From assembly GCA_003345555.1 (NCBI GenBank), contig PRDJ01000015.1:1-6752 (forward strand): 6,752 bases of DNA, written 5' to 3'. The notes beneath the pieces were generated by a model. The model saw nothing but the letters and a program-made list of their open reading frames with translations. It was not told where the DNA came from and did not search any database. The position numbers and the translations under genes were made by a program. Below, one piece after another: positions 1 through 6,466 of the stretch. The first letter of the stretch is position 1; each line of letters starts with the position of its first letter. This stretch comes from Candidatus Thorarchaeota archaeon (GTDB taxonomy: Archaea; Asgardarchaeota; Thorarchaeia; Thorarchaeales; Thorarchaeaceae).

Positions 1-330
1 ACATGGTTCGGGGACACAGTCCGGGGCGAGTTCAGGTTGGCGCTTTCGCTATTGCACCGCATGGTTTCACTGACCGACAGACAAATCCTGATTTCCCGAC
101 ATGCGGCAGAAGCTTTTACCTACGGCAGGAGTATTCTCAAGGAGTCTGTAATGAAGATTGAACCGGGCCTGCAGAGGGGGCAGCAGGTCCTTGTTTTGAA
201 TATGGATGGAGACTGCTTGGGACTGGCAGAACTCTCGGTGGATTCGGGGAAGCTTCACGCTCTGTCTCCGCACGAGCTTGTGGCGAAGAATCAGATGGAT
301 ATTGGCTGGTACCTTCGTCGTTTCAGCTAG
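1..330 (+). CDS. nip7: NIP7/UPF0113-family PUA-domain RNA-binding protein (ribosome biogenesis), 5'-truncated by the window edge
   Basis: Frame 1 is open from base 1 (TWFGDTVRGEFRLALSLL...), so TTG37 is probably not the start. PUA-like segment ISRHAAEAFTYGRSILKESV...RGQQVLVLNMDGDCLGLA, then C-terminal KNQMDIGWYLRR, typical of archaeal NIP7 homologs. Stop TAG at 328-330. Confidence 0.8.
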   Translation, partial: TWFGDTVRGEFRLALSLLHRMVSLTDRQILISRHAAEAFTYGRSILKESVMKIEPGLQRGQQVLVLNMDGDCLGLAELSVDSGKLHALSPHELVAKNQMDIGWYLRRFS

Positions 331-1285: not shown

Positions 1286-1933
1286 CTAGGAGGGTCGTTG
1301 CGAGAACAGCCGAGTCTTCGCCAAGTCCCGCTTAAGTTCCTTCGCTTCCTTCGCCTTCTTGACTTCCGGCTCTTTCCTCTTCAGGGCATCACTGACGGTC
1401 TTGCCAAGAACCTCTTTTGAGACCAGCAAAGTCACCTTGTCGCCTATCGATGCAATGGTAGTGGCGGGCACGATTACGTCGATATCCCTCTTAATGCCTG
1501 CTGACTCTAGGTGCTCTTCGATGAAACTACCGCCCACAATCAATGAAGCAGAACCATCCATGTCAAAATGAATATCCACAGTGTGACCTACCTTTGCTCC
1601 GTCCTTGTCAACGATTTCCAGCTTCTGAATCTTGGATAGGCGAATCTCATTGTTCTTGATAGAGCCTTTGTCCAAAGTCGTCTTTAGGCTGTTTGCAGTT
1701 GTGTCCAGATACACTTTGTCGCCCATTTTCTTGATGAGACTAGCAGTGAAGACAGGGTCACGGTCAGGTCGTATCTTCACTGATTCAAGGAACTCTTCCC
1801 ATGAAGGGCCAGCGAGGACGAATTGTGATAACTTGAGGGACTTGTCAAATGTGAATGTCAAGTCGCCTATGTGGCCGATCTTGCGACCTGTTGAATCTAC
1901 AACATCTTTCTTTTTCAGTTCACTGCATTTCAT
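1286..1933 (-). CDS. Tandem (two-domain) PRC-barrel protein with a basic C-terminal tail
   Basis: Two alignable repeats: MKCSELKKKDVVDSTGRKIGHIGDLTF...IKKMGDKVYL and IRLSKIQKLEIVDKDGAKVGHTVDIHF...IASIGDKVTL. Both match the PRC-barrel pattern (S-x-L-x-x-x-x-V-x-D-x-x-G-x-x-I-G-x-V-x-D; end I-x-x-I-G-D-x-V). ATG1933 is chosen because homology begins there; ATG1951 and GTG1969 are alternatives. Confidence 0.8.
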   Translation of the reverse strand: MKCSELKKKDVVDSTGRKIGHIGDLTFTFDKSLKLSQFVLAGPSWEEFLESVKIRPDRDPVFTASLIKKMGDKVYLDTTANSLKTTLDKGSIKNNEIRLSKIQKLEIVDKDGAKVGHTVDIHFDMDGSASLIVGGSFIEEHLESAGIKRDIDVIVPATTIASIGDKVTLLVSKEVLGKTVSDALKRKEPEVKKAKEAKELKRDLAKTRLFSQRPS

Positions 1934-1987
1934 TGACCCTGAGATTTCCATACAGACCACTAAGCGCACTGCAGGAACAGAGAGGAC

Positions 1988-2001
1988 ATTAAACCTTTCC
2001 C
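1988..2001 (-). promoter_or_regulatory. Putative archaeal BRE+TATA promoter of the PRC-barrel gene
   Basis: Minus strand reads GGGAAAGG-TTTAAT: a purine-rich BRE-like block directly before a TATA-like box. Implied TSS is near 1964, upstream of ATG1951 and ATG1933. Confidence 0.5.
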
Positions 2002-2086
2002 ACCCTCATGTAAATGATCAGCAGCATACGAGATTCGTACCAGCGTGCCTCCTTGAGCAAGGAATCGCTGCAACTGCCCTCGGCTC

Positions 2087-2099
2087 CAAAAACATAATA
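2087..2099 (+). promoter_or_regulatory. Possible BRE/TATA-like element for the helicase-like gene
   Basis: CAAAAAC-ATAATA is the most AT-rich block upstream of TTG2156, but it is an imperfect TATA consensus. Confidence 0.3.
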
Positions 2100-2155
2100 G
2101 CATATGATAACCTCAGGTCCCTGATGCGCAATCGGCCGCAAGGGGCTGACAGTGG

Positions 2156-4375
2156 TTGAGTACGCTGAGGGAACTGGAACTTGAGCGGGTATCTCCGCTC
2201 TTGTTGGAAGTTCTGCGAAAGCAAGGTCTTGCTTCTCTATCGGCTTTTCAAACCGCGGCCCTAAATGGTGGTATTCTCAGAGGCACTAGTCAGCTCCTTG
2301 TGTCCTATGATTATGATGAAGCCTACCAAATCGCCGAGATAGGCCTGCTCAATAGACTCCTCGCAGACTATAGGGCAAAGGCCTTGGTTTTGTGTCCAAA
2401 CCCCAACCAAGCTGAGAGAAGGTTCTCTCTGCTAAACCAGAAGTGTAGGCAACTTGGTATCGAAGCATCGGAAGTTATACGCAGGCGTACTGCGATCGGA
2501 CATGACTGGACAAAGGGACGGGTTATCGTTGGTACCTATGGGTCGATGAATATCGCATTGAATACCCACACCGAGATACTGAAGGATGTGCAGCTCGTAC
2601 TAATCGAGCGTCTAGACCTCATCGGCCTGCCGGAAACCGGTGCTGTGCTCGAGGCCGCACTCGTGAATACAATGAGCCACAATCAAGTCGTGCAATACAT
2701 AGGGGTGCTGCCTCCGGTTGCGGATTTGAAGGATTTGAGCGTCTGGCTTCATTCGGATATAGTAGAAGATACAAAGCCAGAAGTGAAACGTATCTTCAGC
2801 GTGAAGGCATTCAGCAGCGTGAAGGAATCCCTAGCGGATCTGACTGAGTTCATTCACTATCGTCGCGGCCAGACGATGATACTCTGTTCAACCATAGGCA
2901 CATGCCAAGAACTTGCGTCTCAGCTAGCGAGTCCACAGGACGAGAGCACTTCCTCATTCCTCGACCTCAAGCTGACGCCAGCTCAGCGTGATGACTTGAA
3001 CCAGCTCGCGAGACTAGTCTTGGAGAGATATTCTGGTTGTGAGATGACTCGTAGACTAGCAGCCATAATCCCGAAAGGCGTTGCATTTTTGCATGAAGGA
3101 GTGTCGAGAGTCCACAGGCGAGCGATTTCGGCATCCTGGAACGAGGATGTGCTTCCAGTAGTCGTCATGCCTACGAGGTTTGCCATTGCCAGCGGGCTGA
3201 GAGCAACGGTCATCTTCCTCATTGGTATCTTCATGCGCGACCTTAGCATGGATATCGTTGGAGAAGAGAACCCGACTATGTTCTCAGAGTGGCAGTTCAA
3301 TGATGTGATGCAATCAGGAGGCAGACCGGGAAAAGATAACGAGGCATTTGCGATTGTAGTGGTTGAAAACGAATCCGAAAGGAAAATGGTACTAAGCAAG
3401 TACTTCGTAACGGATTCGGAGGGAGACATACGACCGCGACTTGGAGAAGTCGACAGCTCAATGGACAATCCAGAGAACATACAGGATCTCGTAATCAGGC
3501 AGCTCTGTGCAGAAAGGAATACAACGGAGGACCCTCTTGAAATCATAAGCCGAACATATTGGGCTGCTAAGAACCGGGCCAAAGGAATAGCCCGGGACAC
3601 AGGAACACTCGTCGGCGATTCATCCATCGAGGATCTTGTCGCACTCCGCGCCACGAAGTCGACTTTTAAGCGTGCTGACGAAATACCTGATTCGAGTGTC
3701 AGGGTCGTATCCATGACACCTACAAAGATAGAAGGGCTCATACATAGCGGCACTAGGGAAATGTGGCACTATGTGACCCTGAAATCAGACGAAGGAGTGT
3801 CTTGCTCCTGTGAGTCTTGGAAGTACCAAGGGATTAGGGACCATAGACTATGCAAGCATTTGGCCAAGTTCTGCACGTTCGCTCTCAGAGATGATGAAAC
3901 CAAGCCATACGCGAGGCCAATCATAGGTCAGGCCCTCCGTGGGCTTAGCATAGTTGATAAGATGGAACGAGAGGGTCTGGTAGCAAGAGATGCAAAGGGC
4001 CTGAAGTGCACAAGCCTTGGTGAGGGTCTGGCGGCTCTCGGGGTTCCAGTTCGAGATGCCGAGAAAGTCATGAGATCTCTCTCGAAGAAATCGAGCAGAC
4101 TCAGGGACCTCCTCCCCAGTGTGACAGCAGCGAGGACAGGACTGCCCGAGGATTTAGTAAAACGATGTTATGACTCGATTCCATCAAAGGATATTGAACA
4201 TGCAATCAAATGCGAGACAGATATGCCGGGAATCGTCGAGAACGTCTTTGAAGAACTTCACTATGTTAACTCGATTGTGTTGAGACTCACCACGAGCGAT
4301 ACACGGCGAGGACTCAACAAGGAAAGCTTCGAACTACAGAAGCATCTATCATCAATGCTGACAGAAATCAGCTAA
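2156..4375 (+). CDS. Hel308/Ski2-like SF2 helicase-fold protein with degenerate ATPase motifs (predicted inactive) and an inserted SWIM zinc finger
   Basis: Collinear with Hel308 by eye: GLASLSAFQ (Q motif), KALVLCP (Ia), RVIVGTY (Ib), DVQLVLIERLDLIG (II), YIGVLPPVADLKDLSVWL (III), GQTMILCS (IV), KGVAFLHEGV, VVVMPTRFA (V), GGRPGKD (VI), and winged-helix segments IISRTYWA and EGLV...KCTSLG. SWIM motif C550-x-C552-x13-C566-x-H568. TTG start with SD-like AGGGGCTGA (2141-2149); an in-frame TGA at 2147 bounds the ORF. Confidence 0.85.
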   Translation: MSTLRELELERVSPLLLEVLRKQGLASLSAFQTAALNGGILRGTSQLLVSYDYDEAYQIAEIGLLNRLLADYRAKALVLCPNPNQAERRFSLLNQKCRQLGIEASEVIRRRTAIGHDWTKGRVIVGTYGSMNIALNTHTEILKDVQLVLIERLDLIGLPETGAVLEAALVNTMSHNQVVQYIGVLPPVADLKDLSVWLHSDIVEDTKPEVKRIFSVKAFSSVKESLADLTEFIHYRRGQTMILCSTIGTCQELASQLASPQDESTSSFLDLKLTPAQRDDLNQLARLVLERYSGCEMTRRLAAIIPKGVAFLHEGVSRVHRRAISASWNEDVLPVVVMPTRFAIASGLRATVIFLIGIFMRDLSMDIVGEENPTMFSEWQFNDVMQSGGRPGKDNEAFAIVVVENESERKMVLSKYFVTDSEGDIRPRLGEVDSSMDNPENIQDLVIRQLCAERNTTEDPLEIISRTYWAAKNRAKGIARDTGTLVGDSSIEDLVALRATKSTFKRADEIPDSSVRVVSMTPTKIEGLIHSGTREMWHYVTLKSDEGVSCSCESWKYQGIRDHRLCKHLAKFCTFALRDDETKPYARPIIGQALRGLSIVDKMEREGLVARDAKGLKCTSLGEGLAALGVPVRDAEKVMRSLSKKSSRLRDLLPSVTAARTGLPEDLVKRCYDSIPSKDIEHAIKCETDMPGIVENVFEELHYVNSIVLRLTTSDTRRGLNKESFELQKHLSSMLTEIS
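3803..3859 (+). other. SWIM zinc-finger motif (CxC-x13-CxH) within the helicase-like CDS
   Basis: CSCESWKYQGIRDHRLCKH, preceded by predicted beta-strands IEGLIHSG and WHYVTL, as in SWIM domains. Confidence 0.85.
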
Positions 4376-4376
4376 G

Positions 4377-4383
4377 TTTTTTT
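4377..4383 (+). terminator. Putative archaeal oligo-T terminator
   Basis: T7 tract begins 1 nt after the TAA stop (4373-4375). Oligo-U tracts are established archaeal terminators. Confidence 0.5.
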
Positions 4384-4450
4384 ACTCCGGAGAATCCGCC
4401 CCCTCTCCAAGAACACCAGTGCTCCTTCCCGTCAGAAGGTGGTGGAATCC

Positions 4451-5596
4451 ATGAAGCTCTACGAAATGGAGGCAAAGGAGATCTTCCGCTCGTTCAATAT
4501 AACGACACCAGCAGGATACGCGGCCAAGACTCCTGAAGAAGCGAGAAAACGGGCGACCGAGATTGGAAAGCCGGTTGCTGTCAAGGCACAGGTCTTGGCT
4601 GGAAAGAGAGGAAAGGCAGGAGGAATCAAGTTCGCTGATACTCCGGACCAAGCAGAAGCGGCTGCAAGAGACATACTTGGGATGAGAATCAGCGACCTGC
4701 CTGTGGAGGCAGTCCTTGTCGAAGAAAAGCTGGACATTCAGCAAGAGATCTATATTGGAATCACTGTCGACCGAAACGAACGCAAGTATGTCGTAATAGG
4801 GAGTGCCGCCGGGGGGATGTCAATAGAAGAACTCGCGGTAAAGAGCCCCGAGAAGATAGTGAAGATGTACGTTGATCCTATGCTGGGATTCCAATCATAC
4901 GAAGCACAGGAAATGGCTGTAGCGATGGGCTTTCCCAGCAAGATGGTCCGTTCTGTGGCGGGATTCATACTAGGATTGTGGAACGTAGCAGATGCCTACG
5001 ATGCTGAACTCACTGAGATAAATCCACTAATCCTCACTAAGGACGGACGGCTCCTAGCTGCAGATGCGCGCCTCAATATTGATGACAGCGCACTTTACAG
5101 ACACAAGAAGCTAATAGACGGAATAAAGCGCAAACCAGCTGAGCAAAACGAAAGAGAGAGGCTCGCGGCCGAGCATGATATGGCATACGTGGAACTTGAT
5201 GGCAACATTGCATGTATCTGCAATGGAGCAGGTCTGACCATGGCAACACTTGATGCGGTGGCACTTCATGGTGGAAATGCAAGCACATTCCTAGACCTAG
5301 GCGGCGGAGCTGACGCGGAAAGGGTCAAGAAAGGTATCGAGATAGCTCTGATGTATCCAAACGTGAGAGCTATTCTTGTCAATATCATGGGGGGCATAAC
5401 AAGGTGCGACGAGGTTGCAAAGGGTGTGGTCGCAGCTCGCCAAGAGAGGGGAGTCAGTATTCCGATGGTCATACGGATGGTTGGCACCAACGAAAAACAG
5501 GGCCAAGAGATACTCAGCAGTGCCGGGATTCCCTTTCTCAAGACCATGGAAGAAGCTGCTGAGCGCGTAGTGCAACTAACCAAGGAGGTCGCGTAA
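4451..5596 (+). CDS. sucC: Succinyl-CoA synthetase (succinate--CoA ligase, ADP-forming) beta subunit
   Basis: MKLYEMEAKE start; ATP-grasp motifs KAQVLAGKRGKAGGIK, EINPL and DARLNIDDSALYRH; ligase domain GNIACICNGAGLTMATLD, FLDLGGGA, NIMGGITRCD, RMVGTN. ATG4451 follows SD-like AGGTGGTGG (4437-4445). Confidence 0.93.
   Translation: MKLYEMEAKEIFRSFNITTPAGYAAKTPEEARKRATEIGKPVAVKAQVLAGKRGKAGGIKFADTPDQAEAAARDILGMRISDLPVEAVLVEEKLDIQQEIYIGITVDRNERKYVVIGSAAGGMSIEELAVKSPEKIVKMYVDPMLGFQSYEAQEMAVAMGFPSKMVRSVAGFILGLWNVADAYDAELTEINPLILTKDGRLLAADARLNIDDSALYRHKKLIDGIKRKPAEQNERERLAAEHDMAYVELDGNIACICNGAGLTMATLDAVALHGGNASTFLDLGGGADAERVKKGIEIALMYPNVRAILVNIMGGITRCDEVAKGVVAARQERGVSIPMVIRMVGTNEKQGQEILSSAGIPFLKTMEEAAERVVQLTKEVA
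5582..5589 (+). promoter_or_regulatory. Shine-Dalgarno site of sucD, inside the end of sucC
   Basis: AAGGAGGT lies 7 nt upstream of ATG5597. sucC TAA and sucD ATG abut (TAAATG), indicating an operon with translational coupling. Confidence 0.75.
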
Positions 5597-6466
5597 ATGG
5601 CAGTGCTCGTTGATAAGAAAACGAGAGTCATCGTGCAAGGAATCACGGGTACGCAGGGCACTTTCCATGCGACTGCGATGCTCGACTATGGCACGAAAGT
5701 TGTTGCAGGCACGAGCCCGGGCAAGGGCGGCACAGACATCAAGGGTATACCTGTCTATGATACCGTTAAGGAAGCCAAGAAGGCACAAGATGCAACTGCG
5801 TCCATAATATTCGTGCCTGCCGCTTTCGCTGCAGACGCGGCCCTGGAAGCCATTTCCCAAGGCTTGAACCCCGTAGTAGTAATCACTGAGCATCTCCCTG
5901 TCAAGGATGAGATTCGTGTCATCCACGTAGCTTTCGAACGGGGAATCACCATAATCGGGCCTAATACTCCGGGCATAATCACTCCGAAAGCGAAACAGAA
6001 GGTTGGCATCATGCCGGGGCACGTGTTTGCGCCAGGCAACGTCGGCCTTATGTCACGCAGTGGTACACTAACATACGAGATTGCCGCTGGGATGACTCTG
6101 GCTGGCATCGGGATTTCGACTGCAATCGGATTGGGTGGAGACCCATGTGTCGGCCTGACACCGACAGAAGGATTGAAGCTCTTCAGGAAGGACAAGGAAA
6201 CAAAGGCAATCGTTCTCGTGGGAGAAATAGGAGGAGATGCAGAAGAGAGAGCGGCTGCATACATCAAAGAAGGCTTCGATCTGCCGGTCGTCGCATTCAT
6301 TGCTGGAAGAACAGCCCCTGCCGGCAAGAGAATGGGACATGCGGGAGCTATCATCAGCGGTAGTACCGGCACAGCAGAGGCGAAGATTAGGGCCCTTGAG
6401 GATGCCGGAGTCGCTGTTGCGAAAAGACCCAGTGAGGTGCCTCAGCTCCTGAAGAAGCTCATGTGA
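5597..6466 (+). CDS. sucD: Succinyl-CoA synthetase alpha subunit
   Basis: TRVIVQGITG..GTFH, PGKGG, IIGPNTPG, SRSGTLTYE, GLGGDP, GEIGG and the phospho-histidine motif RMGHAGA. Confidence 0.95.
   Translation: MAVLVDKKTRVIVQGITGTQGTFHATAMLDYGTKVVAGTSPGKGGTDIKGIPVYDTVKEAKKAQDATASIIFVPAAFAADAALEAISQGLNPVVVITEHLPVKDEIRVIHVAFERGITIIGPNTPGIITPKAKQKVGIMPGHVFAPGNVGLMSRSGTLTYEIAAGMTLAGIGISTAIGLGGDPCVGLTPTEGLKLFRKDKETKAIVLVGEIGGDAEERAAAYIKEGFDLPVVAFIAGRTAPAGKRMGHAGAIISGSTGTAEAKIRALEDAGVAVAKRPSEVPQLLKKLM

Follow-up and report, generated by a model that had tools for sequence, protein, structure and literature searches.

Helicases of the Hel308/HELQ type are central to the control of recombination from archaea to humans, and no known organisms are closer to the host lineage of the eukaryotes than the Asgard archaea. 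The concept of a pseudo-helicase is already known, from the inactive cassette of Brr2 and from Utp25. In Brr2 the inactive cassette, which can still bind ATP, forms one chain with an active cassette. Utp25 is a DEAD-box-like pseudo-helicase that serves as a scaffold (PMC9539457). Here we describe a gene for a Hel308-like protein of 739 residues on a 6,752 bp stretch of DNA (the window, which is the entire contig C15) from a Candidatus Thorarchaeota genome of 2.28 Mb that is 93% complete. The protein keeps the Hel308 fold, has all of its catalytic motifs replaced and carries a SWIM zinc finger-like domain inserted in its winged helix, and we think it probable, with moderate confidence, that it is a pseudo-helicase acting as a static, non-catalytic adaptor around this SWIM zinc module.

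Fold, replaced motifs and SWIM insert

An initial annotation of the window, made from the sequence alone, had described an intact frame with normal start and termination signals, and a single open reading frame (2156–4375, forward strand) with more than 100 full-length homologs bears this out and is not a chance frame. The TTG start is real, because the upstream frame is open for only two codons before an in-frame stop and conservation in the family begins at codon 2 (S2, T3 and L4 are invariant in the ortholog alignment). Among 12 orthologs from three genera the start is TTG in eleven and GTG in one, and the consistent keeping of this weak start may reflect deliberately low expression. The gene and the parts of its product, as delimited by alignment and modelling, are as follows.

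2156–4375, forward strand: whole gene, encoding a putatively ATPase-dead Hel308-like protein with a SWIM insert, 739 amino acids in 739 codons, start TTG, stop TAA (open reading frame listing, homology and structural model)
2156–2770, forward strand: RecA1-like domain, residues 1–205; substitutions in motifs I, Ia, Ib, II and III, with Q-motif F31-Q32 retained; ratio of nonsynonymous to synonymous substitution rates (dN/dS) 0.084
2300–2326, forward strand: former Walker A motif (P-loop), residues 49–57, VSYDYDEAY; acidic-aromatic, without GK[ST]; D52 and E55 invariant in a 19-sequence alignment
2606–2617, forward strand: former DExH box, residues 151–154, ERLD (DRLD in most orthologs); catalytic Glu replaced by R152, invariant in the 19-sequence alignment
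2708–2716, forward strand: former motif III (SAT), residues 185–187, LPP; xPP family-wide
2771–3451, forward strand: RecA2-like domain, residues 206–432; motif IVa (GVAF.HEG) kept, motifs IV, V and VI replaced; dN/dS 0.116
3167–3196, forward strand: former motif V, residues 338–347, MPTRFAIASG; the replacement sequence is itself highly conserved
3302–3325, forward strand: former motif VI, residues 383–390, DVMQSGGR; first Arg lost, second (R390) kept
3452–3580, forward strand: N-terminal part of the winged-helix domain, residues 433–475 (alignment to PDB sequences, structural model)
3581–3955, forward strand: winged-helix insert, residues 476–600; disordered linker, two helices, four-stranded sheet and SWIM knuckle with helices; dN/dS 0.072
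3803–3859, forward strand: predicted SWIM zinc ligands C550-x-C552-x13-C566-x-H568 (CSCESWKYQGIRDHRLCKH), present in 119 of 119 orthologs and invariant in 62 relatives (alignment A3)
3956–4090, forward strand: C-terminal part of the winged-helix domain with the wing hairpin, residues 601–645 (alignment, structural model)
4091–4372, forward strand: domain 4, a ratchet-like helical bundle, residues 646–739; Y703 and N696 stand in for the ratchet Trp and Arg; last domain, without an HhH domain 5 after it
4357–4372 and 4377–4383, forward strand: short hairpin and, right after the stop, a run of seven T (sequence pattern only)

A Pfam scan recognised no helicase domain in the protein and returned only a sub-threshold SWIM match. 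The NCBIfam Hel308 profile (NF040935) matched residues 15–432 only, at E = 1.5e-24 and 86.2 bits, below its curated cut-off of 1200 (the canonical Hel308 of the same genome scored 608 bits), and sequence searches of the PDB returned Hel308 (2va8, E = 1e-17) and Hjm (2zj2, E = 1.8e-17). An AlphaFold2 (AF2) model built on 62 relatives had a predicted local distance difference test score (pLDDT) of 85.8 and a predicted template modelling (TM) score of 0.85, and the best Foldseek match of this model was Hjm 2zj5 (E = 6.4e-27, TM 0.68/0.73), followed by Hel308 and the POLQ helicase domain, with E-values from 6e-27 to 1e-20. The Hel308 fold proposed on first reading is accordingly present, as the succession of RecA1, RecA2, winged helix and ratchet. 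An HhH domain 5 had no Pfam match and the AF2 model stops after the helices of domain 4; this domain is likewise absent from the active SWIM-bearing paralog of the Thorarchaeia. A search of the ESM Atlas yielded generic helicase clusters only.

The substitutions listed in the initial annotation were checked column by column in alignments to canonical Hel308, which agree with it for motifs I, II, III, IV, V and VI alike. Motif I, canonically P-T-x-S-G-K-T, reads Y51 D52 Y53 D54 E55 A56 Y57, the lysine being replaced by A56; motif II (D-E-I-H) reads E151 R152 L153 D154, motif III (S-A-T) L185 P186 P187 and motif IV (S-R-R) T246 I247 G248; motif V (ATPTLAAG) has become M338 P339 T340 R341 F342 A343 I344 A345 and motif VI (QMAGRAGR) D383 V384 M385 Q386 S387 G388 G389 R390. 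The structural residues that flank the motifs are retained (IAEI, LIG, WL, GVAF.HEG and GR.G.D), again as first read. The loss is shared by the orthologs: in a set of 119 full-length sequences with 51–75% identity, neither GK[ST] at the P-loop position nor a DExH box was found in any member (0/119 for each). The substituted motifs are themselves conserved across the family, as x[TS][YH]DY[DEN]EAY for motif I, [DE]R[LI]D for motif II, xPP for motif III and MP[TIM]RFA[IV]ASG for motif V.

Replacement extends to motifs Ia, Ib, IV and V, by which superfamily 2 (SF2) motors hold the nucleic-acid backbone, and the net charge of the RecA2 domain averages −7.6, while the other clades compared lie between +1.6 and +5.1; together these changes argue against a simple keeping of DNA or RNA binding by the motor core. 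Retained are the invariant Q-motif F31-Q32 and R390, the second arginine of motif VI, and the position of the ratchet tryptophan is still aromatic (Y703). The acidic former P-loop (D52, E55) would face R152, an arrangement that would fit a charge-swapped salt bridge filling the empty ATP site. These residues also bear on whether the remodelled cleft might bind a nucleotide or another ligand in a non-canonical manner and retain a catalytic or switch activity. The invariance of F31-Q32, and the fact that D52, E55, R152 and R390 are invariant or nearly so, indicate that the cleft is under selection, but the P-loop is gone entirely with an acidic phosphate-binding position, the catalytic glutamate has become an arginine, the first arginine finger is lost and the E55/R152 pair would suit the salt bridge just described, and a cryptic enzyme of this kind seems to us very improbable.

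The initial annotation had overlooked the SWIM insert, some 125 residues (476–600) that split the winged helix into an N-terminal and a C-terminal half. The CxCx13CxH pattern lies within the most conserved block of the protein (residues 541–570, mean column identity 0.90). The Pfam SWIM profile PF04434 matched residues 545–570 with 17.4 bits (gathering score 19.6, E = 0.0033), and the homologous inserts of relatives exceed the gathering score (P0140, 27.7 bits; P0135, 21.5 bits). Modelled alone, the insert reached a pLDDT of 91.8, and VIA-align against 48,161 PDB chains ranked ZSWIM8 first (Z 7.8, 97 aligned residues, root-mean-square deviation 3.4) and Shu2 second (6dex, the solved Shu1:Shu2 protein complex, Z 4.3), with the third rank at Z 3.8; Foldseek of the isolated insert returned nothing at E < 0.001, with ZSWIM8 ranked second at a probability of 0.80. 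In ZSWIM8 the SWIM domain has been described as the 'central organizer' of a dimeric protein superdomain (PMC13083262).

The basic character of the SWIM knuckle raises the alternative of a static nucleic-acid clamp or sensor, in which single-stranded DNA, branched DNA or RNA would be bound through the winged helix, the knuckle and the ratchet without movement, for example to cap, protect or anneal strands. Consistent with such a clamp, the winged helix and the ratchet domain are retained in the AF2 model, Y703 is aromatic, the nearest partly degenerate relatives have a strongly basic insert (+8.1), and ATPase-null HELQ still anneals naked DNA (review PMC13623763). The HhH domain 5 that the same review ties to annealing is, however, absent here; the SF2 backbone contacts of motifs Ia, Ib, IV and V have all been replaced, RecA2 is shifted by about 12 charges toward acidic, the ratchet arginine is now an asparagine, and the two solved SWIM look-alikes function in protein assemblies. 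We therefore consider a clamp possible but rather unlikely, and prefer the adaptor.

Selection, distribution and gene neighbourhood

The purifying selection suggested in the initial annotation (dN/dS < 1) was found throughout, with dN/dS (omega, NG86 method) of 0.07–0.16 in 22 pairs with unsaturated synonymous divergence (dS); between the gene of the window and its closest ortholog (75% identity) the ratio was 0.087, at a dS near saturation. By domain, the SWIM insert gave the lowest value of those listed above and domain 4 gave 0.177; the dead RecA1 domain is one of the regions of the protein under the tightest constraint. Ortholog lengths range from 733 to 749 amino acids with almost no indels. 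The protein is, in its retained fold, its lost catalytic residues and its purifying selection, a pseudoenzyme. That all catalytic motifs are gone and that Pfam sees no helicase domain might also suggest a decaying pseudogene or an annotation artefact, but a 739-codon frame that is unbroken in about 80 genomes, a dN/dS of about 0.1 and the conservation of the substituted motifs themselves refute this reading, to which we give practically no credence.

Orthologs were surveyed in 400 genomes of the phylum, a clear ortholog being defined by E < 1e-50. Clear orthologs (44–75% identity) were present in about 82 of the 85 genomes of a single family of Thorarchaeia (f1), in 16 genera, and the three genomes of this family without one were 92%, 85% and 65% complete. 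None was found outside the family among the 400 genomes, where the next best match had 25% identity (E = 1e-61). The window and 13 genomes belonging to 12 other genera share one and the same gene order around the locus: an RsmB-like methyltransferase, a Nip7-like PUA protein, PAC2 on the opposite strand, the gene itself, sucC, sucD and then ribosomal and RNA-processing genes. The neighbours that lie within the window are listed here.

1–330, forward strand: Nip7-like UPF0113/PUA protein, C-terminal part, cut by the contig end
327–1076, reverse strand: PAC2-family gene (proteasome assembly chaperone-like)
1286–1969, reverse strand: open reading frame of 227 amino acids with two PRC-barrel repeats, between PAC2 and the helicase-like gene and divergent from the latter
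4439–5596, forward strand: sucC, succinyl-CoA ligase beta, co-directional 3′ of the gene here and in each of the 13 further genomes examined
5597–6466, forward strand: sucD, succinyl-CoA ligase alpha, likewise co-directional here and in each of those 13 genomes

The hairpin and T run at the end of the gene likely form, judging from their pattern, an archaeal terminator ahead of sucC, and the helicase-like gene and sucC/sucD are probably separate transcripts. The PRC-barrel frame was considered as a linked partner and rejected, being found by tblastn only in genera g1, g6 and g10 and appearing frameshifted in the closest relative (G333). The view of the initial annotation that the gene sits among housekeeping genes rather than in a mobile island agrees with its Nip7-like PUA, PAC2 and sucC/sucD neighbours, and neither PADLOC, which gave no significant match, nor the gene context showed a mobile or defence signature at the locus. 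A reading as a Hachiman-like defence gene was likewise dropped, the match to HamB being at E = 0.0096 and 11.5 bits and the neighbours being PAC2, the PRC-barrel protein and sucCD. Two further frames, an antisense one at 2983–3753 (reverse strand, 256 amino acids) and an overlapping one at 1632–2159 (forward strand, 175 amino acids), had no Pfam match and are most likely mere shadows of the real genes. No RNA gene was found in the window by Rfam, and no tRNA.

Paralogs and the SWIM-bearing Hel308 clade

A canonical, SWIM-less Hel308 is encoded in the same genome, as the initial annotation had allowed for, on contig C30 (735 amino acids, with PTSSGKT, DEIH, SAT, ATPTLAAG and QMAGRAGR motifs and an HhH domain). 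Genomes of the family carry three Hel308-type paralogs, namely this canonical form, an active-type SWIM-bearing Hel308 of about 735 amino acids (SPTGSGKT, DEIQ or DEVH, SAT, QMLGRAGR) and the motif-replaced SWIM protein described here, which is found in at least as many genomes (about 82 of 85) as either active paralog. The active SWIM-Hel308 was not found in the present genome. In relatives it stands directly upstream of an operon for a RadB-like protein and an XPG/FEN-like nuclease; the corresponding operon here (contig C37, L057:3102-8227, reverse strand) encodes a 594-residue protein, a PhoH-like P-loop protein (288 residues), a 323-residue protein, a divergent RadB-like protein (243 residues) and an XPG/FEN-like nuclease (328 residues). 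Because this downstream operon stops about 200 nt from the end of the contig, the missing gene is likely an assembly gap and not a loss.

In the closest relative (G333, locus L041, G333:C3:597336-608016) the active SWIM-Hel308 appears split into two frames of 316 and 480 amino acids inside a 916-kb contig, whether by a frameshift, by decay into a pseudogene or by an error of sequencing; the motif-replaced paralog of that genome is intact. When the C30 protein was used as query, no canonical SWIM-less Hel308 was found in genus g15 (G387–G389, 96–99% complete) or in genomes G336, G328, G342 and G351; in all of these genomes it matched the active SWIM type only, at E-values of about 1e-60 to 1e-70. 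The three g15 genomes keep the motif-replaced gene though the query found no canonical Hel308 there. The canonical form may be dispensable where a SWIM-Hel308 exists.

Three paralogs in one genome also invite the possibility, raised in the initial annotation as a dominant regulator, that the protein regulates an active one, either by pairing in trans with the active SWIM-Hel308 or the canonical Hel308, in the manner of the Brr2 cassettes, or by competing for partners. The inactive Brr2 cassette modulates the active one, POLQ-helicase and HELQ oligomerise, and the motif-replaced and active SWIM paralogs are alike in length, domain plan and lack of HhH. Set against this, no operon links the gene to either active paralog, and it is kept both where canonical Hel308 was not found (g15) and where the active SWIM copy looks broken (G333). 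A regulatory partnership of this sort appears improbable to us, and the adaptor remains our preferred reading.

An exhaustive phmmer search of 1.8 billion representatives recovered a second tier of relatives with 20–27% identity and lengths of 700–990 amino acids, in which the SWIM finger stands at the same position in 26 of 27 inspected and the insert aligns in register with that of the protein. All relatives with a named source are Asgard archaea (Hod/Prometh-, Ran-, Odin-, Jord-, Baldr-, Hermod-, Loki-, Heimdall- and Asgardarchaeia). Most SWIM-bearing relatives keep intact motifs; in proteins labelled Hod, Ran and Odin, GK[ST] is kept and DExH, SAT and motif VI are eroded. In a tree built with IQ-TREE under the posterior mean site frequency (PMSF) model (quick search, support from the Shimodaira–Hasegawa approximate likelihood-ratio test, SH-aLRT), the SWIM proteins form one clade apart from canonical Hel308, with 100% support. 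By these sequence comparisons the protein is an offshoot not of canonical Hel308 but of a distinct Hel308 clade that bears the SWIM finger and that we recovered from Asgard archaea alone. The interpretation given in the initial annotation thus stands for the kept fold, the lost motifs and the selection, stays conjectural for a sensor or a regulator of the active Hel308/Ski2 helicase, and falls short in having missed the SWIM insert and descent from the SWIM clade. For the Asgard SWIM-Hel308 clade as a whole, the results suggest the insert as the functional core.

Within the tree, the stem of the motif-replaced clade measures about 2 substitutions per site, and the degenerate Hod, Ran and Odin forms are its sister group (SH-aLRT 99%). 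This grouping may be due to long-branch attraction, because an approximately unbiased (AU) test failed to reject a union with the active SWIM copy of the Thorarchaeia themselves (p = 0.153). Two SWIM copies occur only in family f1; the sister family has a single copy, which is active, and in the Hod-like and Odin genomes the single copy is degenerate. A shared WK[YF]xG...CKH signature nearly matches the SWIM consensus at large and is uninformative on origin; the clade may stem either from a duplication within the lineage or from an older or transferred paralog. At loci L043, L046 and L062–L068 of Hod-like (G299, G300) and Odin (G304) genomes, the SWIM-Hel308 has DETY or DEFQ in place of DExH and an eroded motif VI, and a canonical Hel308 is present alongside. 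From their sequences the Hod-like and Odin proteins may be nucleotide-binding but hydrolysis-impaired, and the erosion of the motifs may have been caught half-way in the partly degenerate Hod, Odin and Ran forms.

Proposed role and comparison with known systems

In the mechanism that we favour, the protein would be a Hel308-type scaffold of RecA1, RecA2, winged helix and ratchet, without canonical ATP binding or hydrolysis and hence presumably without translocation, that strong purifying selection has preserved ever since one family of Thorarchaeia arose. Its rigid helicase body would present the invariant SWIM module, together with surfaces newly fixed where the ATP cleft and motif V used to be, to a partner, most likely a protein of the recombination and repair network in which the active paralogs act. 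A protein partner is favoured because the nucleic-acid contacts of the motor are gone, RecA2 is acidic and both solved SWIM look-alikes lie in protein assemblies. Such a protein would be a natural "separation-of-function" case for what the Hel308 body does without its motor.

Several observations weigh against this proposal. No binding partner was identified, and no functional link emerged from the neighbouring genes (PAC2 and sucCD here, metabolic genes beside the Hod and Odin relatives). The loss of ATPase activity is itself read from the sequence, and the invariant Q-motif glutamine Q32 could make a residual adenine-nucleotide contact or be merely structural. A nucleic-acid ligand is conceivable in view of the kept winged helix, the aromatic Y703 and the basic SWIM knuckle (WKYQGIRRHRLCKH). 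Complex prediction of the full protein with the divergent RadB-like protein from the operon of the active paralog gave a score of 0.00, which counts neither way. A more specific version of the adaptor, which we offer as a speculation with a small chance of being right, would make the protein a dedicated non-catalytic regulator of homologous recombination whose SWIM domain docks onto a RadA paralog or onto the machinery of active SWIM-Hel308, RadB-like protein and XPG-like nuclease. If true, it would be an archaeal counterpart of the eukaryotic HELQ–RAD51 paralog and Shu2/SWS1–RAD51 paralog pairings, joined in one polypeptide.

The initial annotation knew of no characterised archaeal family of this kind, and our literature searches found no paper describing SWIM-bearing or ATPase-dead Hel308 homologs, the active Asgard SWIM-Hel308 included. 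A 2024 survey of Ski2-like proteins in Archaea makes no mention of SWIM or degenerate forms, and database entries for the orthologs mostly read 'hypothetical protein'. The gene looks like an undescribed example of an archaeal helicase turned pseudoenzyme.

The protein shares with archaeal Hel308/Hjm (2zj2/2zj5, 2va8, 2p6r) and with the helicase domains of HELQ and POLQ the same four-domain body, collinear over its full length and with a TM score of about 0.7, and with Hel308/Hjm the Ski2-type motif IVa (GVAF.HxG) and the Q-motif glutamine. It differs from Hel308/Hjm in the replacement of ATPase motifs I, II, III and VI and of nucleic-acid motifs Ia, Ib, IV and V, in the SWIM domain of about 125 residues within the winged helix, in the absence of HhH domain 5 and in its acidic RecA2. 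The active SWIM-Hel308 paralogs of Asgard archaea have the insert at the same position, nearly the same length (735 amino acids) and no HhH, and belong to the same clade (SH-aLRT 100%); unlike them, the protein lacks intact motifs, has only 20–25% identity to them and sits on the long stem noted above. The nearest non-orthologs are the partly degenerate SWIM-Hel308 proteins labelled Hod/Prometh-, Odin- and Ranarchaeia (P0129, P0130, P0135 and P0145; 22–25% identity over about 640 residues), which in contrast keep the GK[ST] of Walker A and which, in the genomes checked (Hod-like G299/G300, Odin G304), are the sole SWIM copy.

For the insert, the points in common with ZSWIM8 (PDB 9rwz) and Shu2/SWS1 (PDB 6dex) are the CxCxnCxH zinc knuckle, the sheet that precedes it and the helices that follow, and in both of these proteins the SWIM domain acts within a protein assembly. 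Here, unlike in ZSWIM8 and Shu2, the SWIM domain is inserted into a helicase winged helix, at 16–18% identity, and any Rad51-paralog or cullin partner would be conjectural. Parallels among known pseudo-helicases would be the C-terminal cassette of Brr2, itself a Hel308-like unit, and Utp25, in which a helicase fold likewise serves as a non-motor interaction platform; unlike the Thorarchaeia protein, both are eukaryotic and without a SWIM domain, and they have no specific sequence kinship with it beyond the Ski2-like superfamily.

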